Source: Candidatus Woesebacteria bacterium (lineage in GTDB: Bacteria > Patescibacteriota > Saccharimonadia > Saccharimonadales > EFPC-124). Taken from it: DNA of 64,000 bases. The stretch is taken from contig JASFQB010000002.1 of the NCBI GenBank assembly GCA_050115675.1, forward strand, positions 132,376-196,375, read 5' to 3'. Positions 3,761-18,573 of this stretch are shown piece after piece (positions within the stretch are counted from its first letter, which is position 1; every line of letters starts with the position of its first letter). The notes beneath the pieces are model-generated. The model saw only the letters and a program-made list of their open reading frames with translations, was not told the DNA's origin and ran no database searches. A program made the translations under genes and the position numbers.

Positions 3761-3835
3761 TGGGGAGTGGCCAAGTGGTAAGGCACCAGGTTTTGGTCCT
3801 GGCATTCGGGGGTTCGAGTCCCTCCTCCCCAGCCA
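3761..3835 (+). tRNA. tRNA-Gln (anticodon UUG), CCA encoded
   Basis: 75-nt cloverleaf folded by hand. Acceptor TGGGGAG/CTCCCCA, anticodon stem CCAGG/CCTGG with loop TTTTGGT, T-arm GGGGG-TTCGAGT-CCCTC, discriminator G plus CCA. Collinear with E. coli tRNA-Gln. Confidence 0.9.
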
Positions 3836-3837
3836 TG

Positions 3838-3868
3838 AAAAAAGATTGACAAATTGTCAATCTTTTTT
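3838..3868 (+). terminator. Rho-independent terminator of tRNA-Gln (first copy of the repeated junction)
   Basis: aaaaaagattgac-aaat-tgtcaatctttttt; A-run, 9-bp stem, T-run. Confidence 0.7.
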
Positions 3869-3919
3869 CATGATCTACTTATTTTATAACTTTAGAACAG
3901 GTGAGAGTCGGGAATGCTG

Positions 3920-6831: not shown

Positions 6832-7321
6832 CGAAACACAACTTTTTGAACGCGTACGCGATATTCCATACTATACGAGCGATGCCAGCGCGCAATCCTG
6901 CTTTGATAAATGCATTGCATTAAAGCATAGGCTTGATGCTCATGGTCACATCTGCAACTTAATGATTGGCGATTTTTATTGGTCAGACTTAAAATTACCT
7001 AAAGAAATCATGAGACTTTGTAATAAGGATAAGGAGGGTCATGTATTCTTGCGAGTAAAAGCGCCTACAGGCGGTGGCTGGATGAATCTTGATCCAACTA
7101 TAGACATAGCTCTTGGTGAATATTTTACTGTCGAGCAATGGGATGGCAGATCGAGCACTGGTATTATGATGCCGCTCACAAATATTCGTGTCTATCGACC
7201 GTTTTCGTTTTTGGAACGGACTAAATCGAAGGCCCGACGACTGCTTCACCGAACAGAACCAAACAAAGTTTTTTACAGAGCTTTTGATTCTTGGCTCGAT
7301 GATATGCGACTAGGTAATTAG
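6818..7321 (+). CDS. Transglutaminase-like (Cys-His-Asp) superfamily protein
   Basis: Pattern RDIPYYT...QSCFDKCIALKHRL...GHVFLRV...WMNLDPT fits the transglutaminase-core Cys/His/Asp order. Overlaps the lysS 3' end by 14 nt. Confidence 0.55.
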   Translation: MKAFNETQLFERVRDIPYYTSDASAQSCFDKCIALKHRLDAHGHICNLMIGDFYWSDLKLPKEIMRLCNKDKEGHVFLRVKAPTGGGWMNLDPTIDIALGEYFTVEQWDGRSSTGIMMPLTNIRVYRPFSFLERTKSKARRLLHRTEPNKVFYRAFDSWLDDMRLGN

Positions 7322-7560
7322 TTACAGGTAAGAGATTACTGCGTTTCGATATAATTGCTTCTACGCAATTTACGCTGTACTCTCTTCGTTGCAGCGCAGC
7401 GTTGAGGTTTAAAGAGGGCGAGCATCTCGATCAGTCTCCTCGAACATAATTTCTGCAATTCGTGCCTCGACATCACAATGATAACACTCTAGCTTCTTCA
7501 ATTTCTCCGCTATAAGAAGCAATCTAGGATAAATCTGGTGCCACCTGATGGATACTACGT

Positions 7561-7599
7561 CAGCCATAAAAAAAGATTGACTAATTGTCAATCTTTTTT
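7561..7599 (+). repeat. Second copy of the tRNA-Gln 3' end plus terminator junction
   Basis: cagccataaaaaaagattgactaattgtcaatctttttt vs 3830-3868. Upstream, actacgtc (7554-7561) matches 9888-9895. Confidence 0.7.
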
Positions 7600-7709
7600 C
7601 TTTATATAAAGTTAACAATACTGCGCTCTGAAAATGCACATATTACTTGCATAGTTTCTACAACCCTGCTAAGCTAAAAATACACTAAAATATTTCATAA
7701 GGAGCTGCC

Positions 7710-8105
7710 GTGATGGCATTCGAACGTTTCAGTAACTTCAACTCTAGAAGCGGCAAATCATACGCTAACATAACTCGCAACTACGCAATCAACTTTTCTT
7801 CTGGTTTCGGTGAAGAAAATGGTATTGCCAAATTCAAGTACGCAGTTTTATACTTCGATAAAAAGGATTGTGCTATTGGTGTAAAATTTACAAATAATGC
7901 AACTGAAGAAGCAAAATTTGTTGCTGGCAAAAAGCAAGCAAGCTCGGGCGTTACGGTAATAGCGCGTTCCTTTTTTAAAAAGTATGATATTGATTTGGAA
8001 AAATATGACAAAATCCGCTATGCACCGTACAAAACAAAATTGCGTGATATCGGCATCGACGAGCCGGGTATAATGTACGTCATAAAACTTGAGGAAAGGG
8101 GCTAG
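7710..8105 (+). CDS. Hypothetical protein (131 aa)
   Basis: ORF with AGGAG 5 nt upstream of the start. No motif recognised. Its stop lies 6 nt before the NYN gene start. Confidence 0.5.
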   Translation: MMAFERFSNFNSRSGKSYANITRNYAINFSSGFGEENGIAKFKYAVLYFDKKDCAIGVKFTNNATEEAKFVAGKKQASSGVTVIARSFFKKYDIDLEKYDKIRYAPYKTKLRDIGIDEPGIMYVIKLEERG

Positions 8106-8111
8106 CGAACC

Positions 8112-8711
8112 ATGGGCAAAACTGTCTACGCTTTTATCGATAGCCAAAACCTTAACCTGGGCGTTCGCTCTTTGGGTTGGCGCATTGACTACAAGAAATT
8201 TCGGCTCTATTTAAAAAACAAATATAACGTTGAACGCGCATTTATGTTTATTGGGCTTGTTGGCAATAATCAAAAGCTTTACACGGAATTGTAGGCGGCT
8301 GGTTTTATTTTGATTTTTAAGCCAACTGTTCAGTATTTTGAGAATGGTAAAAAGACGGTAAAAGGTAATGTGGATGCTGAGCTTGTTCTGCATGCCGCTG
8401 CAATTGAATTCGCAAATTACGATAAAGCGATTATTGTTAGTGGTGATGGAGATTTTGCCTGTTTATTGGAGTTTCTTCTAGACAATAAAAAACTCAAAAA
8501 TATCTTGACTCCAAACCATAAATACTCAAAGTTGCTCAAGCCGTTTTCTTCACATATTATTCACATCAGCCAGCTAAAAAATCTATTGAATACAAAAAGA
8601 CCGGCATCGGCGGTCGAAACCTTAGGCCTATCCGGTCATGGTGATATTGTTAGTATAACAGGCGCTCTAATGATTTGTCAAATATTAATAATCATTTCTT
8701 GGCAGGTAAAA
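8112..8711 (+). pseudogene. NYN/LabA-like (PF01936-type) nuclease gene interrupted by in-frame TAG
   Basis: YAFIDSQNLNLG...MFIGLVG...LYTEL*AAGFILIFKP...GNVDAELVLHAA...AIIVSGDGDFACLLEFL is collinear with NYN domains. TAG at 8292-8294 is in frame. No stop separates this gene from the next. Confidence 0.7.
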
Positions 8712-9719
8712 ATGTCAAATCCGATTCATGTAAAATCAATTGCCTACGGCGTATCCGAGTGCGACCCAATTGAGCTAGCACGCTCCGTAGACGACACTAG
8801 GCGGCTCGTTTTTCTGCCTATCATCCATAATAACAAGGAGAAAAATGGCGCCGTTACCGGTACTTTTGTATATCAGCGCAAATTAAAAACCGATAAGTGG
8901 GACAAGGTGCCGTCGGGGGACGAACAGCTTAGTAGGCTTAAAGCTGGCGAAGGATATCGATTGGAGCTAAGCACCGATGCGGTTACTAAATTAGTCTCCA
9001 GTCTTATGGAAATCGAAAGCATTGCTGAACAGGTTCGTAGTGGATCAACTAACACTACATTTGTGCCTACGGCAAATGATCTGGCTCCATTACTTACATA
9101 GTTACTAGAGAGTCTTGGCGATAAAGAGGCTTTGGCAGAAATATCTAGGTTAGGCAAAGAAAACGCTCTTCGCCTAAACGACCTAATCCTGAACGCGCGA
9201 ATCCGCTCTGCCCTTAAATATTGGCAAGAGCACAAGGATGACGCAGACGAAGAAGCTTGGCAACGATTTTTTAGTAATCGGCCCTGGATACTGTCTCTGA
9301 TATCGCCAGAACCTATCGTAATTCTCAAGGATAAAATGTACGTTGGCGGAACAAATGCGTCCGCGAAGGGCGGCAAAACGGTAGATTATGGCTTAATTAA
9401 TAAGCAGACAAATAATACGGCACTCTTAGAAATCAAGACGCCAAAAACGCAGCTTTTAGGAAGCGAATACAGGGGTGTCTTTCCGCTCTCTAATGCCTTG
9501 TCAGGATCAATCCTTCAAGTCTAGACTTACAAATATAATCTAATCAAGAACCTTCCTACGCTCAAAGAAGATTTCGGATTTTTCGAAGCAGCAAATGTTG
9601 CTACTTATGTCCTAGCTGGCAATACAACACAGTTAACGGATGAGACTCAAAAACGCTGCTTTGAACTGGGACGCAAGCCTAGAATTCGTCAAGCGTATCT
9701 TCCTCTTCGTCGTCATTAA
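8712..9719 (+). pseudogene. Shedu-like DUF4263 (SduA-type) nuclease gene, two in-frame TAGs and truncated C-terminus
   Basis: EEAWQRFFSNRPWIL...GKTVDYGLI...ALLEIKTPKTQLL...SGSILQV*TYKYNL...TYVLAGN matches the DUF4263 D...E-x-K...Q core. TAGs at 9099-9101 and 9522-9524. The usual C-terminal TYDeL segment is missing. Confidence 0.65.
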
Positions 9720-9855
9720 GCTGCAAAAGTAGCGTAAAGAAATCTACGAGTCCATCCCCAATTTCTTTGACTTCTTCAAGCGCATAGCTTCGCCCATCCT
9801 GCTTTTCTAAAATCAAACGTAGCTCCTCGTACTTTTCATCGCTAATTTCGGCCAT
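9679..9855 (-). CDS. Small very acidic protein (58 aa), below the ORF-track cutoff
   Basis: MAEISDEKYEELRLILEKQDGRSYALEEVKEIGDGLVDFFTLLLQLNDDEEEDTLDEF. Its 5' end and upstream region are duplicated at 18602-18633, where the copy is truncated (MSEISDKKC*). Confidence 0.4.
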   Translation of the reverse strand: MAEISDEKYEELRLILEKQDGRSYALEEVKEIGDGLVDFFTLLLQLNDDEEEDTLDEF

Positions 9856-9950
9856 AGCAAACCCTGCCGATCATGACATAAAAGGTTTGGACTACGTCCT
9901 TCCTCGCCAGCCATGGAAAATGACACATGCACAAGTATGTGTCATTTTTT
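9836..9950 (+). repeat. Third junction copy: ~80-bp direct repeat containing a degenerate tRNA-Gln 3' end plus hairpin terminator
   Basis: gtccttcctcgccagccatg matches tRNA gtccctcctccccagccatg at 18/20. It is followed by aaaatgacacat-gcacaagt-atgtgtcatttttt. 9836-9918 aligns with 18602-18686 at about 75%. Confidence 0.65.
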
Positions 9951-10018
9951 ATGACAGATCATAATAGCTGAGTTGAAGCTATTCTTATACTCCTGTTTCT
10001 AAGATATACTATCAACAT

Positions 10019-10852
10019 ATGAATAGCCCAAGGCTTATCTCTACTTATCTGCTTGATGGGTCAATTGAAGGTGTGCGGATTATTGAACTGTCTGAAAGCT
10101 CAATTAAGGCTTTTGTTATCCCGCGTATCAAGCTCAACGACGTTAAAACGCGCGATGAAATAAATTGGCCAGCACTGTATCTGCTCATAAATTCCGGCGA
10201 CAACCAGCTTTACATTGGTGAAAGCGAAAAATTTTATGACCGCGTTAAAAATCACGATCAGTCCAAAGACTTTTGGGACGTAGTAGTTGCTATCGTGTCT
10301 AGTAATAATTCACTAGAGAAAAGTGATGTAAAATACCTTGAAAGCCTCGCGGTTAAAAAAGCCAAAACAACCGCGGCTATGGAAGTGCTAAATAAAACCG
10401 TACCTGTGCGCAATAACATACATGAGTTTAAGATTCACTCGTTGGAAAAAACTTTGGAAGATGTCGCGCTAATTGCCGAGAGTTTAGGTTATAGTATATT
10501 TAGGTCTGAAAATATAACCGCCGCCAGCACTTGGTATGTTAAAGCCAAAAAAACCGACGCCAAGGCCGAGTTTCGTGGTGATAAATTTGTAATTATAGCC
10601 GGCTCTAAAATAGACAAGAGCGTAGCCCTAAGCTTCAAAAAAGGTTGGCCAAAACGCTATCTAGAAAGAGAAGAAATACTTACAAAGGCCAAAGATCACG
10701 GCGACCACGTAGTGCTTTTAGAGAATATACCGTTTAAAAGTCCTAATTTGGCATCAGATTTTGCAACTGGCAGATCTACGAATACCTGGATTACCTGGAA
10801 GAACAAAGACGGAAAGACTATGGATGAAGTTATACGAAAAGGAGAATCATGA
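10019..10852 (+). CDS. GIY-YIG nuclease domain / DUF4357 protein
   Basis: [28 protein letters not shown] (GIY-YIG-like core). The C-terminal [18 protein letters not shown] is typical of DUF4357. ATGA overlap with hsdM. Confidence 0.65.
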
Positions 10853-12411
10853 GCAGTAGCCATAACAATCAGCGGTCAGAATTACATCGCGCCATTTGGC
10901 AGATCGCCAATGACGTGCGTGGCGCAGTTGACGGCTGGGATTTTAAGCAATACGTGCTTGGTGCGCTTTTTTACCGCTTCATTAGCGAAAACTTTGCTGC
11001 TTATATTGAGGCCGACGATGCAAGCATTAATTACGCCAGTATGCCCGACGACGTTATCGCCCCTGAAATCAAAGACGACGCCATCAAGACGAAAGGCTAC
11101 TTCATCTACCCCAGCCAACTGTTTGTTAATGTGGCGAAGAATGCCCACGACAACGAAAGCCTCAATACGGATCTAGCTAAGATATTTTCTAGCATAGAAT
11201 CATCGGCCAACGGCTATCCGTCGGAGCAGGACATTAAGGGCCTGTTCGCAGACTTTGATACTACCAGCAACCGGCTTGGCAATACTGTTGCAGCCAAGAA
11301 CGCTCGGCTAGAGCGAGTGCTTAAGGGTGTAGCGGGTCTTAAGTTTGGCGATTTTCACGGCAGTGAGATTGATCTTTTTGGTGACGCATACGAGTTCTTG
11401 ATCTCAAACTACGCTGCCAATGCGGGTAAGTCCGGAGGCGAGTACTTCACGCCGCAAAACGTGTCCAAGCTTATCGCCCAACTAGCCCTTCATAAACAAG
11501 AGAATGTCAACAAGATTTACGACCCTGCTTGCGGTTCTGGCTCCCTTCTTTTGCAAGCCAAGAAGCAGTTTGACGCCCACATCGTCGAAGAAGGTTTCTT
11601 TGGCCAAGAGCTTAATCACACCACTTACAACCTAGCACGCATGAACATGTTTCTGCACAACATAAACTACGACAAGTTTAATATCCAGCTGGGCGACACA
11701 CTTATTGACCCACACTTTGGTAGCGACAAGCCATTCGACGCCATCGTGTCCAATCCGCCATACTCCGTACATTGGAAAGGCTCCGATAATCCAACACTTA
11801 TCAATGACGATCGCTTTGCGCCTGCTGGTGTTTTAGCACCCAAGTCAAAGGCAGACTTTGCTTTTGTGCTGCACGCTTTAAGCTACCTTTCTGGCAAAGG
11901 TCGCGCGGCGATTGTGTGTTTCCCAGGCATATTCTACCGCGGTGGTGCCGAACAGAAAATTCGGCAATATTTGGTAGACAATAACTATGTTGAGGCGGTC
12001 ATATCGCTGGCGCCTAACCTGTTTTTTGGAACAACCATTGCAGTAAACATCCTGGTACTTGCCAAGAACAAGCTCAATACTAGTACGCTGTTCATTGATG
12101 CTAGCGGCGAAGAGTTTTTCAAAAAAGCTACCAACAACAATGTTATGTTGGATGAACATATCGCCAAGATCGTGGGGATGTTTGATAGTAAAGAAGATGT
12201 TGAATATATAGCAAGGTCCGTAACGTATGAAGATATCGTCCAAAACGATTACAACTTGTCCGTTAGCTCCTATGTCGAAGCCAGAGATAATCGCGAAGTT
12301 GTTAACATTGCCGAGCTGAATGAAGAAATAAAAACCACTGTTGGCAAGATAGACCAGCTCAGGAGCGATATAGATAAAATTGTGGCGGAGATCGAGGGCG
12401 GTAAACAATGA
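10849..12411 (+). CDS. hsdM: Type I restriction-modification system, DNA methyltransferase subunit
   Basis: N-terminal HsdM_N pattern ([10 protein letters not shown]...[13 protein letters not shown]), AdoMet motif [10 protein letters not shown], catalytic VSNPPYS. Confidence 0.9.
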
Positions 12412-13244
12412 AAAGCAAAATCCAACTATTCCAAGACCAGCAAGTACGAACCGCATGGAACGTAGACAAAGAAGAATGGCTTTTGTCTGTAGTTGATGTT
12501 ATAAGAATACTAACCGACCAGCCAGACCACCAATCCGCACGAAACTATTGGAAGGTGCTAAAAAATAGAATACAAAAAGAAAGTGGCCAACCGGTTACAA
12601 AACGTAACCAGTTGAAAATGCGAGCCGAAGATGGCAAAATGCGCCTAACCGATGTGGCGAATCAACAAGAGTTATTGCGCATCATTCAATCAGTACCAAG
12701 TAAAAAAGCAGAGCCGTTCAAGCAATGGCTAGCGCAGGTCGGTGCAGATAGATTGGATGAAATTCAAAATCCAGAACTGGCCATAGATCGCGCCATGATA
12801 TACTATCGCAACTTAGGCTACGACGAGGGCTGGATAAATGCTTGCTTGCAGTCCATACAATTCCGCAAAGAACTTACCGACGAATGGAAACGCACTGGCG
12901 TCAAAGAAGGCCAAGAGTACGCAATGCTTACTAATATTATGGTACAGGGTTGGTCCGGTAAAACAATCAAAGATTATAAGCAGTTCAAGGGGCTCAAAAA
13001 AGAAAACTTACGCGACAATATGACGAGCCTTGAGCTTGCGCTCAATATCTTGGCAGAAACTACGGCAACAGAGCTATCAAAAACTAGTGATCCGCAGGGC
13101 GTCGCTGCCCAAAAAGACATATCTCAACGCAGCGGGAAAATAGCTGGTGATGCGCGTAAGAATATCGAAAGCCAAACTGGACAGAGTGTCATAAGCCCAC
13201 AAAATGCCAAAGATTTACGATTAGGCGAAGGCAATAGAAAATGA
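12408..13244 (+). CDS. Bro-N domain protein (phage antirepressor-like) inserted in the R-M operon
   Basis: [29 protein letters not shown] fits Bro-N. ATGA overlaps at both ends. Flanked by a duplicated hsdM 3' end. Confidence 0.6.
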
Positions 13245-13298
13245 GCAAGATAAACAGTCCAAGGAGCGATATAGACAAAATTGTGGCGGAGATCGAGG
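13245..13298 (+). repeat. Duplicated copy of the hsdM 3' terminus (insertion scar)
   Basis: 13262-13298 aggagcgatatagacaaaattgtggcggagatcgagg vs 12361-12397 (36/37). Looser similarity extends back to 12344/13245. Confidence 0.8.
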
Positions 13299-13299
13299 C

Positions 13300-14307
13300 A
13301 TGAGCCAAGAAATCCAATTCCTGATATACAGCACGCCACAAGAAGACATTAAAGTTGATGTGGTAATGCGCGATGAAACCATCTGGCTTACGCAAAAAGC
13401 CATGGCGGCATTGTTTGATGTGCAAGTTCCCGCCATTGCCAAGCATCTAAAAAGTATCTTTGAAGACGGAGAGTTGCAGACAGAATCAACTATTTCCAAA
13501 ATGGAAATAGTTCAAAACGAAGGCCAACGTGAGGTCAAAAGATTTATAGAATTTTACAACCTCGATGCCATAATATCCGTTGGCTATCGGGTGAACTCGG
13601 CCAAAGCGACTCAGTTTAGAATTTGGGCAACCAAAACGCTTAAAGAATTTATCCAAAAAGGTTTTGTGCTGGATGACGAACGCTTAAAACAAGGCGAGCA
13701 AGTATTTGGCAAAGATTACTTCCGTGAACTGTTAGACCGCGTTCGCTCCATCCGTGCCAGCGAACGACGCATTTGGCAACAAATTACCGACATCTTTGCC
13801 GAATGCAGTATCAACTACAATCGCAATTCGCCCGTTACAAAAGAGTTTTATGCGATGGTGCAAAACAAGTTTCATTTTGCCATTGCGAGTCAAACAGCTG
13901 CCGAGATCGTTTATGCCAAATCAGATCGGCACAAAGACCATATGGGGCTTGCGACGTGGAAAAACGCACCAGATGGGCGGGTGTTAAAATCTGACGTGAC
14001 AATTGCCAAAAACTATTTGCCCGAAAAAGAGATTAAACGACTCGAACGTGCCGTAACAGGATATTTTGATTACATCGAAGATTTGATCGAACGCGAAAAT
14101 ACATTCACCATGGAACAGTTCGCGCAGAGCGTAAATGAATTCCTGGCTTTTAGAAAATATCAGATTCTAGATGGCAAAGGTACGATTTCTAAGCAACGAG
14201 CTAGCAAAAAAGCCGAGGCCGAATACGACGCATTTAACAAAACCCAAAAAATCATTTCTGACTTTGATAAAACCGTTAAGGCACTTGAGAAAGAAGGTGG
14301 CGTATGA
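13300..14307 (+). CDS. RhuM family protein
   Basis: IVQNEGQREVKRFIEFYNLDAIISVGYRVNSAKATQFRIWATKTLKEFIQKGFVLDDERLK is the characteristic RhuM core. Confidence 0.8.
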   Translation: MSQEIQFLIYSTPQEDIKVDVVMRDETIWLTQKAMAALFDVQVPAIAKHLKSIFEDGELQTESTISKMEIVQNEGQREVKRFIEFYNLDAIISVGYRVNSAKATQFRIWATKTLKEFIQKGFVLDDERLKQGEQVFGKDYFRELLDRVRSIRASERRIWQQITDIFAECSINYNRNSPVTKEFYAMVQNKFHFAIASQTAAEIVYAKSDRHKDHMGLATWKNAPDGRVLKSDVTIAKNYLPEKEIKRLERAVTGYFDYIEDLIERENTFTMEQFAQSVNEFLAFRKYQILDGKGTISKQRASKKAEAEYDAFNKTQKIISDFDKTVKALEKEGGV

Positions 14308-15479
14308 GCCAGCCTGGCTTTTTAGAAAAGTTGCTTGATGATGCCGACGTAGAGCGGCTACCTTTAGGTGATGTAGTCAAACTTCAGAGAGGCAAAAGGC
14401 TTGTGCGAAGTCAACTGGATGAAGTCGGTAAATATGCTGTATACCAAAATAGCATGAAGCCGCTGGGTTATTATCACGAAAGTAATGTTGAGGCCGATAC
14501 AACATTTATTATATGCGCTGGCGCAGCAGGTGAGATTGGCTATAGTGATGTCAATTTTTGGGCAGCGGATGATGTTTACATCTGCTTAACGCCAAATAAT
14601 CTATTGAGTAGGTATTTATACCATTTTTTGTTGGACCAAAAGAGTACTATTCTATCTCAGGTTCGCAAGGCAAGTATTCCGCGTCTATCCAAAACAGCGA
14701 TTGAAAAGCTGCAAATCCCAATCCCATGCCCAGATGATCCGGAAAAATCGTTGGCTATTCAAGCAGAGATTGTACGTGTGCTAGACTTGTTTACAGAGCT
14801 AGAAGCAGAGCTAGAAGCAGAGCTAGAAGCAGAGCTAGAAGCACGTAAAAAGCAATACAACCACTACCGCGATCAACTTCTCACTTTTGGGCCAAGTGTT
14901 GAACGGATCAGCCTAGCTGATGTTGGCAAAATATCTATGTGCAGACGTATATTTAAAAACGAAACTTCACCCGATGATGGGATTCCTTTTTTCACAATTG
15001 GCACATTCGGGAAAAAGGCAGCTTTCTACATATCCAGAGAACGATTTGGGACCTACAAGAGTAAGTACTCATATCCTAAAGTTGGAGATATTCTTTTGTC
15101 TGCTTCAGGAACGATAGGAAGGCGAGTCATATTTGATGGCTCAGATTCATACTTTCAAGATTCAAATATTATCTGGATTGATAATGATGAAAGTAAAGTT
15201 CTAAATAAATTCCTCTTCTACCTTTACGAAATTATCACATGGGAGACTGAGGGCGGAACAATTAAACGGCTTTACAACCGCAATATTAAAAAAATTGAAA
15301 TACCAGTTCCGCACCTCAAAGAACAGGCGCGAATCGTAGGCATTCTTGATAAGTTCGACACACTGGCCAATTCAATTAGTGCGGGTCTACCGAGAGAAAT
15401 TGAACTGCGCCAAAAACAATATCGATATTACCGAGATTTATTATTTAGTTTTTTAACAAAAAAGGAACAAAATGACTGA
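14304..15479 (+). CDS. hsdS: Type I restriction-modification system, specificity subunit
   Basis: Two variable target-recognition regions are separated by the central conserved helix ([13 protein letters not shown]...[15 protein letters not shown]). Distal conserved region [15 protein letters not shown]...[16 protein letters not shown]. Confidence 0.85.
14796..14843 (+). repeat. Perfect 12-bp x4 tandem repeat (gagctagaagca = ELEA) in the hsdS central helix
   Basis: Read directly: four identical in-frame units at 14796-14843. Confidence 0.95.
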
Positions 15480-18400
15480 AGAAACAAACCCCATTGCTGA
15501 ATCTAAACGGTTCGTCATATTAGACAAGTACGTCAAACAATGGGTGCCGGTCGAGAGCTATCAAAGCGAGGCGGATCTAGAGCGCGAGCTCGTTAAGGAC
15601 TTAATGAGCCAAGGCTATGATTTGGCTGCTGAAATAACCTCTCCTGAGGTGATGCTTGGCAATGTGCGTTTGCAGTTGCAGTCGCTGAACGATGTGCAGT
15701 TTACGGATGCGGAGTGGGCTCGCTTTGTAGAAACGTATCTGGATAAGCCAAGCGACACTATTACCGATAAAACCAGAAAGATTCACGACGATCACATTTA
15801 TGATTTTGTGTTTGACGACGGCCGCATACAAAACATACAACTCCTGGACAAGGCAAATATATCACGCAATAAAGTGCAAGTTATAAAGCAGTTTGAGCAA
15901 ACAGGATCACATGCTAATCGCTACGACGTGACCATTCTCGTTAATGGGCTGCCATTGGTGCAGATCGAGCTAAAAAAGCGTGGCGTTGCTATACGCGAGG
16001 CCTTCAACCAGGTACACCGCTACAGCAAGGAAAGCTTCAACAGCGACCAGTCGTTGTACAAATACTTGCAGCTATTCGTCATCTCCAATGGAACTGACAC
16101 TCGCTACTTTGCCAACACTACCAGGCGCGACAAGAACAGTTTTGATTTTACTATGAACTGGGCAACTGTCGACAACAGCCCTATTAAAGATCTCAAAGAT
16201 TTTACCGCCACGTTCTTTCAGCCGCGCACACTCCTAAAAGTATTGCTGCATTACTCGGTATTTGATGCGAGAGACACCCTGCTTATAATGCGCCCTTATC
16301 AGATTGCCGCAACCGAGCGTATCATCTGGAAGGTCAATAGTTCGCATCAGGCAAAAACCTGGAGCAAGCCAGAGAGCGGCGGTTTTGTCTGGCACACAAC
16401 TGGATCTGGCAAAACATTGACCAGCTTTAAGGCGGCACGCATGGCAACCGAACTTGATTGTATAGACAAGGTGTTTTTTGTGGTTGACAGAAAAGATTTG
16501 GACTACCAAACCATGAAAGAATACCAGCGTTTCTCGCCCGACAGTGTGAACGGATCTGACAGTACTGCAGGACTTAAACGTAATCTAGACAAAGACGACA
16601 ACAAGATCATCGTTACCACCATCCAAAAGCTCAATAATCTGATGAAGGGCGAGGCTGACTTGCCCGTATATGACCAACAAGTAGTGTTCATTTTTGATGA
16701 ATGTCACCGTAGCCAGTTTGGTGAGGCGCAGAAGAATCTACGAAAGAAATTTAGGTCATACTACCAGTTTGGTTTTACTGGCACGCCAATAATGCCAGAA
16801 AACGCTTTGGGCGCGGAGACGACTGCTAGTGTGTTTGGTCGAGAGCTACACTCTTATGTGATAACCGATGCAATCCGTGACGAGAAGGTGCTGAAGTTTA
16901 AAGTTGACTACAACGACGTACGCCCTAAATTTAAGAGTGTGGAGTCCGAGCAAGACTTGAAGAAACTCACTGCTGCCGAGAACAAGAAAGCACTCTTACA
17001 CCCTGAAAGGATCCAGGAGATATCGCAGTATATTCTAAGTAATTTCCGCCAAAAAACCCACCGAACATATGGGGCAAACAAGGGGCTCAACGCAATGTTT
17101 GCAGTGAGCAGTGTAGAGGCCGCCAAGCTGTATTATGAGATGCTAAACAAGTTGCAAGCCAACAGCGATAGGACTCTCAAGATCGCCACAATATTCTCAT
17201 TTGCGGCCAATGAAGAGCAGGACGCCATTGGCGACATCCAAGATGAAAGCTTCGACGTGTCTGCGATGAACAGCAGTGCCAAAGAGTTTTTGAACTCCGC
17301 AATCAATGACTACAACGCATACTTCAAGACCAACTTCAGTGTGGATAGCAAAGGATTCCAGAACTATTACCGTGACCTTGCTAAGCGCGTTCAATCTCGG
17401 GATATTGATCTGTTGATTGTAGTGGGCATGTTCCTTACGGGTTTTGATGCACCAACGTTAAACACGCTTTTTGTGGACAAAAATCTGCGGTATCACGGTC
17501 TGATGCAAGCGTTCTCGCGCACCAACCGGATTTATGACGCAACGAAAACATTCGGCAATATTGTCACCTTCAGAGATCTCGAAAAGGCCACGATCGATGC
17601 GATCACTCTGTTCGGCGATAAAAATACCAAGAATGTGGTGCTGGAAAAAAGCTACAAAGAGTACATGGACGGTTACAATGACGTTGTAACTGGTGAAGCG
17701 CGTCGTGGTTTTATTGATGTAGTGGCTGAACTTGAAGACCGGTTCCCCGACCCAGCCAATATTGTGTTGGAGGCCGACAAGAAGGCTTTTGCTAAATTGT
17801 TTGGCGAATACCTGCGCGCAGAGAATATCCTCCAGAACTACGACGAATTTGCCAGCTTAAAAGAGTTACAAGACACGGACATAACCAACGATTTGGCACT
17901 AGAGACCTTCAAAGAAAAACACCACTTGACTGATGAAGATCTTGAGATTATGCAAAAAGTGCACATGCCTTCTGAGCGCAAAGTGCAGGACTATCGGTCA
18001 ACGTACAATGATATCCGCGATTGGTTGCGCGAAAAGAAGAATTCTAATGATCAGAGCGAGTCCGCGATTGATTGGGATGATGTAGAGTTTGAGGTTGACC
18101 TCCTGAAATCACAGGAAATCAATCTGGACTACATACTTGAGCAGGTATTTGAAAAGAACAAGAAGATCAAGGACAAGTCAGCTCTTGTTGATGATGTACG
18201 CCGAATAATCAGGTCTAGCATTGGCAACCGGGCAAAAGAAGGCCTGATAGTTGACTTTATAAATCAGACGGATCTTGACCAAATACCAGATAAGGTTGGT
18301 ATTATTGAATCTTTCTTCAAATACGCACAAGTAGAGCAACAACGGGAGGCTGAAGAGCTGATCGCTGCCGAAAACCTAAACGACGAAGCCGCCAGGCGGT

Positions 18401-18573
18401 ATATAAACACCTCGATTAAGCGCGAGTATGCAAGCGATAACGGCACCGAGCTAAACACCCTTCTGCCCAAGATGAGCCCCCTCAATCCAGAATACCTAAC
18501 GAAAAAACAAAGTGTTTTTCAAAAAATAGCGGCATTTGTCGAGAAGTTTAAGGGGATTGGCGGGAGACTTTAA
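15472..18573 (+). CDS. hsdR: Type I restriction enzyme, R (helicase-endonuclease) subunit
   Basis: N-terminal nuclease region ([20 protein letters not shown] = D...E-x-K), Walker [15 protein letters not shown]-type [15 protein letters not shown], later helicase motifs ([19 protein letters not shown]). Confidence 0.9.

Follow-up and report, generated by a model that had tools for sequence, protein, structure and literature searches.

The reading frame at positions 8112-9719 of a 64,000-nt stretch of a Candidatus Woesebacteria metagenome-assembled genome (MAG) is very probably the remnant of a dead two-gene cassette, consisting of an NYN nuclease gene and a single-gene Shedu (SduA) system, in a standard-code host from the candidate phyla radiation (CPR) and beside a type I restriction-modification (R-M) locus. 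The stretch, referred to here as the window, has a G+C content of 43% and covers positions 132,376-196,375 of the forward strand of contig JASFQB010000002.1 (196,813 nt). When translated, the frame comprises 536 codons and contains three internal stops, all of them TAG, before the terminal TAA at 9717-9719. A preliminary description, made from the letters of the window, had read it as an NYN and a Shedu gene in one continuous frame that is broken only by these amber codons and has no frameshifts. Translation confirms the three TAG codons (Table 1) and homologue alignments continue through all three sites, but the DNA of relatives reveals three deletions in addition. In the ancestor NYN and Shedu were two genes in different frames, an 86-nt spacer lay between them, and TAG was the stop of each. 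In the lineage of the window three Gln codons were turned into TAG by C-to-T changes, losses of 1 and 4 nt let the 3' end of NYN run past its own stop in phase with Shedu, and a 76-nt loss took from the Shedu nuclease domain its conserved C-terminal strand and helix, and from the gene its stop. Neither protein would be made in full, and the decay appears to be recent, since the remaining sequence still looks like sequence under purifying selection.

The residues that homologues carry at the TAG positions indicate the mutational path. Four intact Shedu homologues (P0001, P0057, P0058 and P0059) have Gln at both Shedu sites, and 13 of 14 aligned homologues have it at the third amber codon. This last TAG replaces the nearly invariant Gln271, two residues past the invariant motif residue Gln269, which remains. 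Judged from these alignments, all three TAGs are C-to-T transitions at Gln codons, because the closest relatives have CAG or CAA (Gln) there. Recent nonsense decay by CAG-to-TAG transition, one of the explanations offered at the outset, is thus the one that the data bear out.

The deletions were called from two- and three-way DNA alignments of the window with two related loci, L001 (the contig that encodes P0001) and L012 (a JGI contig), at about 77% identity. Both loci have the same layout of NYN gene, spacer and Shedu gene, and in intact relatives each of the two genes ends with TAG. The distance from the NYN start to the Shedu start is 599 nt in L001 and 611 nt in L012, which places Shedu in phase +2, and 600 nt in the window, which places it in phase 0. 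L003, a more distant NYN locus, confirms both the 1-nt and the 4-nt deletion, and in a tblastn search the NYN tail of the homologues, SIEYKKTGIGGR, was matched in another frame of the window. The single continuous frame exists because the 5 bases lost from the 3' end of NYN put it in phase with Shedu, and the old NYN stop is bypassed because the same loss shifts the frame. The region that would form a coding linker between the domains is intergenic in L001 and L012. At the other end of the cassette, positions 2574-2649 of L001 have no counterpart in the window, and homology picks up again past the gap. This deletion costs the last 25 Shedu codons, a tail (NSRDTxVLTYDEVFxRLQLL) that is conserved from CPR proteins to the Bacillus cereus SduA structures 8TI8/8TI9. 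The observation that the Shedu C-terminus is truncated at the boundary with a small antisense open reading frame (ORF) was correct; the antisense ORF abuts the junction of the 76-nt deletion.

In the Shedu remnant Pfam finds SduA_N (PF21407, E 1.9e-14) and SduA_C/DUF4263 (PF14082, E 1.4e-13), the latter at profile positions 2-144 of 159 only, and the SduA models of PADLOC match the intact relative P0001. The catalytic residues D225, E240, K242 and Q269, which make up the D...ExK...Q core recognized in the first reading, are invariant in the homologue alignment and are all retained in the window copy. The homologues are stand-alone proteins of 342-351 aa, the best of which is P0001 (84% identity); the amino acid identity of the window copy to the intact P0001 and P0057 is 84-89%, the higher value being that of P0057. 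When a profile of the family is aligned with B. cereus SduA 8TI8, the match spans the whole length (E 1e-58, from residue 4 of 8TI8). B. cereus SduA is a single-gene anti-phage Shedu nuclease with structures 8TI8/8TI9 (bioRxiv 10.1101/2023.08.10.552793), and the window gene shares with it SduA_N, a linker and a DUF4263 PD-(D/E)xK domain over the full length. It differs in that no uninterrupted Shedu ORF (~345 aa with the C-terminal strand and helix) is left, codons 130 and 271 being TAG and the conserved last 25 codons being absent through the 76-nt deletion. A place within or beside R-M systems is reported to be common for Shedu genes, of which 602 out of 5,499 lie within such systems. In having a partner gene immediately upstream of the Shedu nuclease, the cassette resembles the two-component KELShedu (PMC12577705), but has an NYN nuclease in that place and not the KELA DNA-binding protein.

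The NYN remnant was initially described as a complete NYN/LabA-like domain. The domain assignment stands, with a match to Pfam NYN (PF01936, E 1e-15) over the first 143 residues of the frame, whereas the completeness does not: codon 61 is TAG and the 3' end is frameshifted by the 1-nt and 4-nt deletions, so that no uninterrupted NYN ORF remains. In these lesions the window copy differs from the NYN/LabA-like PIN-type nucleases (PF01936; PADLOC PDLC01154), with which it shares the domain match and the FIDxxN and GDGD motifs. Its identity to the intact NYN proteins of L001 and L012 (170 and 174 aa) is 76-80%. The NYN alignment shows no variation at D88 and D112-G113-D114 and almost none at N13. 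Most of the retrieved NYN relatives carry NYN behind a NUDIX, RlaP or TIR-like domain, while in the window, L001 and L012 it stands alone. Among the proteins P0020-P0050 the N-terminal partners are NUDIX, RlaP, TIR-like, epimerase/dehydratase-family and alpha/beta hydrolase domains; P0050 has the reversed order, with NYN first and a DHBP synthase domain behind it, and P0025 has the C-terminal two-thirds of the NYN domain only. A NUDIX-NYN gene (L041/L042, 3001-4071) is located between recA and recX in Saccharibacteria. From this range of contexts the NYN module looks mobile.

The read-through translation was searched against 5.8 billion proteins, and none of the 52 homologues (0/52) carries both domains. 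A fusion protein of NYN and Shedu can be rejected on this ground and because the relatives have separate genes in different frames, with their own TAG stops and the 86-nt spacer. NYN lies directly upstream of Shedu only in the window, L001/L002 and L012, and five CPR loci whose Shedu is 62-66% identical have no NYN nearby. A literature search for a functional link between Shedu and NYN returned nothing relevant. By its distribution among these loci, the pairing is a neighbourhood of a shallow clade and not an established system.

Loss of Shedu genes is not confined to the window. About 6 of the 34 fetched loci of the family are broken: the frame is shifted in L012, L016 and L033, a Gln position of L014 is occupied by TAG, and L035 combines a TAA with a frameshift. 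In the Shedu gene of L012 (5001-6046) the break is the loss of 1 nt within GGCAAAA. The TAG of L014 (~1876) lies within CCTAGG, a sequence similar to a CCWGG methylation hot spot. In the window the decay is like that of classical amber mutation and bacterial pseudogenes, with C-to-T changes at Gln codons and small deletions at an A-run and a short tandem repeat. It is unlike them in that the three sites show no methylation-type context and that the knockouts exceed what the missense load predicts. The substitutions on the window branch (C>T 31, G>A 20, T>C 23, A>G 26) form an ordinary spectrum, and CAG contexts show a mild enrichment that is not significant (6/32 vs 48/501). A deaminase or methylation hot spot as the source of the ambers is rejected on these two grounds.

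Several measurements weigh against a simple history of neutral decay. The lineage of the window bears no mark of a long neutral phase. The window copy has no excess of unique amino acid changes (26, compared with 39 in L001 and 24 in L012), and the ratio of non-synonymous to synonymous (N/S) codon changes in its lineage is 1/17 for NYN and 12/48 for Shedu, together 13/65, like that of the intact relatives. In a mutation model built on the observed spectrum, nonsense mutations are 5.5% of the non-synonymous ones; under neutrality a median of 46 missense changes precedes the third nonsense change, with P(<=12) = 0.046 and P(<=5) = 0.008, and the probability that all three stops are TAG is 0.04. 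By these post hoc tests, six disabling lesions with little other damage are thus somewhat beyond simple neutral decay. A second allele was sought to measure selection, but every copy of the broken allele, whether from JGI, NCBI or Logan, has the same sequence, and selection on the broken allele is therefore not measurable. To account for the excess of knockouts, two possibilities suggest themselves: the decay is very recent and luck played some part, or losing a costly nuclease pair was selected for. It does not rescue a recoded reading of the ambers, because the deletions remain.

Selection for loss is the best of the alternatives, though a rather unlikely one. According to this explanation the cassette is costly through autoimmunity of its nucleases and each further knockout was selected, the locus being just as dead. 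An amber at a Gln codon would be leaky, as a near-cognate tRNA-Gln restores the wild-type residue, and additional lesions would still cut toxicity. The number of disabling lesions beyond the missense-based expectation, their presence in both genes, and the independent breaks in the same Shedu clade (L012) and in more distant Shedu loci, which suggest frequent loss, speak for this explanation. The tests of knockout excess, however, were made after the fact and give modest values (p about 0.01-0.05), hits that follow the first stop or the 76-nt deletion should be near neutral, and both toxicity and readthrough in this organism are suppositions.

Much less probable is programmed or conditional decoding, in which TAG is read as Gln, at a low constitutive level or when a recoded phage supplies a suppressor tRNA, and the nucleases are made only then. 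All three TAGs stand at ancestral Gln sites, which matches the TAG=Gln reassignment of recoded phages (PMC10746230) and which plain CAG-to-TAG mutation predicts as well, CAG-to-TAG being one of just two transition routes from a sense codon to TAG (the other is TGG-to-TAG). The N/S ratios of the rest of both ORFs, which resemble purifying selection, would also fit. Yet the 3' end of NYN is frameshifted, the 25 C-terminal codons of Shedu are gone, and the relatives have no TAGs at these sites. ARAGORN finds only tRNA-Gln(UUG) and tRNA-Ala(CGC) in the 64-kb window and no suppressor tRNA-CUA; TAG terminates 19 of the 49 long non-overlapping ORFs there and both ancestral genes of the cassette, in agreement with the initial statement that the host uses TAG as a stop. 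The window has no other split genes or amber interruptions, and amber interruption as a genome-wide condition was rejected for this reason. Predicted phages of Saccharibacteria are reported to use the host code 11 (PMC10746230), and a literature search gave no precedent for defence genes that depend on a suppressor. The low-level amber readthrough that had been proposed for this frame thus finds no support, the more so as the ORF is otherwise not intact, having three deletions of which two shift the frame in coding sequence.

A bolder version, slightly less probable again, holds that the ambers are tolerated or used: the nuclease pair would be translated only with a TAG-to-Gln suppressor tRNA, for example from a recoded phage, and would catch phages that have altered their code, while the loss of 5 nt would then yield an NYN-Shedu fusion. 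The frame does resemble genes of TAG-to-Gln recoded phages (code 15; Lak, crAss-like) in having in-frame TAG where homologues have Gln, and differs from them in that the window has no suppressor tRNA, TAG is the ancestral terminator, the relatives are cellular, and frameshifts and a deletion are present. Acquisition from a source, donor or phage, in which TAG is a sense codon, another of the early proposals, is hardly credible. The TAGs occupy Gln positions only and the frame has no internal TAA or TGA, but the closest relatives are on CPR contigs, have CAG at the sites and end both genes with TAG; no viral relative of the cassette was found among 2.9 million viral contigs, the ordinary flanking genes use TAG stops, and no recoded relative with many TAG-for-Gln codons turned up.

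That the lesions are an artefact of sequencing or assembly is equally implausible: the sequence comes from a MAG whose reads were not inspected, but Logan contig L004 (SRR11713588), built independently, is 100% identical to window 7570-14823 with the same TAGs, and six separate lesions of three kinds are an untypical error pattern. The JGI gene calls give fragments of identical lengths (60, 263 and 130 aa). No assembler error made the TAGs, as the same sequence is in the Logan contig and the JGI gene calls, although the NCBI, JGI and Logan assemblies may share one sample. In the NCBI record the fragments within 8112-9524 are listed not as pseudogenes but as ordinary proteins, three in number (MGD8373613-15; 60, 263 and 130 aa), named hypothetical, NYN domain-containing and DUF4263 domain-containing. 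The MAG is labelled Woesebacteria, whereas the closest homologues come from Saccharibacteria MAGs.

The 3' end of the NYN gene overlaps a convergent candidate for an antisense small RNA gene, suggested by promoter-like and terminator-like signals on the minus strand. The predicted promoter (11 of 12 matches) has -35 TTGACA at 8681-8676 and -10 TATACT at 8657-8652, separated by an 18-nt variable spacer and with a TG-n-TATACT arrangement; a predicted hairpin at 8636-8599 is followed by a U-run at 8598-8594. Apart from the 4-nt deletion of the window, which falls in the hairpin, L001, L012 and L003 match the block 8594-8646 at 100% identity, while the flanking coding DNA is only 72-77% identical. 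The same layout recurs at distant NYN 3' ends, in L040 (RlaP-NYN), L041-L044 (NUDIX-NYN), L045 and L047. Every copy combines a promoter on the minus strand with an AUCAC-like start at the 5' end, a hairpin that contains the conserved core CCUAAGGUUU, and then a U-run. The outer stems vary yet remain complementary (GACCGG/CCGGUC, GCUACG/CGUAGC, GAGAGGC/GCCUCUC, GGGAG/CUCCC). In an alignment of six sequences 87% of the cells are paired, compared with 64% after shuffling (0 of 500 shuffles reach 87%), and 8 of 12 pairs have changed on both sides. Rfam has no match for the block at gathering or relaxed thresholds, the structure of the spacer RNA of the plus strand is no better than that of shuffles, and the conserved spacer block was not found in viral contigs. 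The apparently conserved C-terminal peptide of NYN (...GIGGRSKP) is probably no more than the translation of this RNA element, and the L041 ORF terminates ahead of it. Some antisense RNAs of type I toxin-antitoxin pairs overlap the 3' end of the toxin gene, and by analogy the candidate RNA may control the NYN mRNA. Taken together, the alignments point to a conserved and apparently undescribed element, similar to an antisense small RNA, at the NYN 3' ends of CPR bacteria.

The cassette, to judge from its neighbours, is set in a typical defence island beside the type I R-M locus. Genes for Bro-N (PADLOC PDC-S13) and RhuM (PDC-S05) sit between hsdM and hsdS, and a GIY-YIG/DUF4357 gene (PDC-S14) overlaps the start of hsdM. 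The 131-aa ORF upstream of the cassette bears no relation to the 197-aa gene that occupies this place in L001/L012. The convergent 58-aa ORF has a stop that shares a CTAG palindrome with the former Shedu stop, and has a 60-aa homologue in L001/L002 (L001 2661-2843, minus strand) with 60% identity over 45 aa and a different C-terminus. Searches of Pfam, PADLOC, PHROGs and NCBIfam gave no significant match for these two ORFs or for one of 167 aa.

Further to the left, a 48-nt direct repeat (3830-3877 and 7561-7608, 90% identical) contains the last bases of tRNA-Gln(UUG) and a palindromic terminator-like hairpin with perfect 19-bp arms. The two copies flank a 3.7-kb segment with a HATPase/DUF4325 gene and a paralogue of class II aminoacyl-tRNA synthetases of the Lys/Asp/Asn type. 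The repeat may be an att-like duplication; no integrase was seen. The region around 6884-7570 of the window is where two other assemblies break: Logan L039 and a 25-kb JGI contig stop just past the synthetase gene, and Logan L004 begins at 7570. In a 142-kb JGI contig the island, from about 6962 rightwards, is joined on its left to quite different genes (RNase III, S16, TrmD, Ni-SOD, CHAP). The discrepancy reflects either rearrangement between strains or a questionable join within the contig of the window.

Table 1. Positions of the cassette, its lesions, the neighbouring features and the related loci (window numbering unless a locus is named)
Feature	Position	Strand	Remarks
Upstream ORF, 131 aa	7710-8105	+	ends with TAG at 8103; in the same frame by chance, separate gene
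NYN pseudogene (LabA-like, PF01936)	8112-8625	+	ATG at 8112; ancestral stop TAG 8623-8625 now out of frame
Amber codon 1	8292-8294	+	NYN codon 61, inside the NYN domain; CAG in L001, CAA in L012, Gln in P0025
1-nt deletion site, A-run at NYN 3' end	8576-8582	+	L001, L012 and L003 each one base longer
Candidate antisense small RNA gene	8588-8681	-	overlaps the NYN 3' end, convergent; predicted from promoter-like and terminator-like signals
4-nt deletion site, one CGGT/GGTC repeat copy	8610-8616	+	within a block otherwise 100% conserved
NYN-Shedu intergenic spacer, 86 nt	8626-8711		intergenic in L001 and L012
Shedu pseudogene (SduA_N + DUF4263/SduA_C)	8712-9677	+	from ATG at 8712 to the deletion junction
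Amber codon 2	9099-9101	+	Shedu codon 130, linker between N-terminal and nuclease domains; CAG in L001, CGG (Arg) in L012
Amber codon 3	9522-9524	+	Shedu codon 271, nuclease domain; CAG in L001 and L012
76-nt deletion junction (9677/9678) and old Shedu stop	9677-9682	+	old stop TAG 9680-9682 out of frame; frame continues to TAA 9717-9719
Convergent acidic ORF, 58 aa	9679-9855	-	abuts the deletion junction; neighbour, outside the pseudogenes
Type I R-M locus	10019-18573		hsdM 10849-12411, hsdS 14304-15479, hsdR 15472-18573
NYN gene of L001	L001 1009-1521		170 aa
Spacer of L001	L001 1522-1607		86 nt
Shedu gene of L001	L001 1608-2654		348 aa
NYN gene of L012	L012 4390-4914		174 aa
Spacer of L012	L012 4915-5000
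Candidate RNA copy	L001 1477-1580
Candidate RNA copy	L012 4870-4975
Candidate RNA copy	L003 1826-1930
Candidate RNA copy	L040 4288-4390
Candidate RNA copy	L041 4066-4215
Candidate RNA copy	L044 1300-1475
Candidate RNA copy	L045 1690-1790
Candidate RNA copy	L047 2968-3060

The event described here is probably an ordinary and recent pseudogenization of known defence genes. Its chief value is as a correction, in that the frame is neither a new fused defence architecture nor a sign of a change in the genetic code, and the public annotation of the three proteins should read pseudogenes. The side results, namely the over-representation of knockouts that hints at selection for loss and the RNA-like element at NYN 3' ends, could outweigh the main finding. 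For the Shedu family, with about one sixth of the sampled loci broken, the cassette is one more data point for the fast turnover of defence genes.

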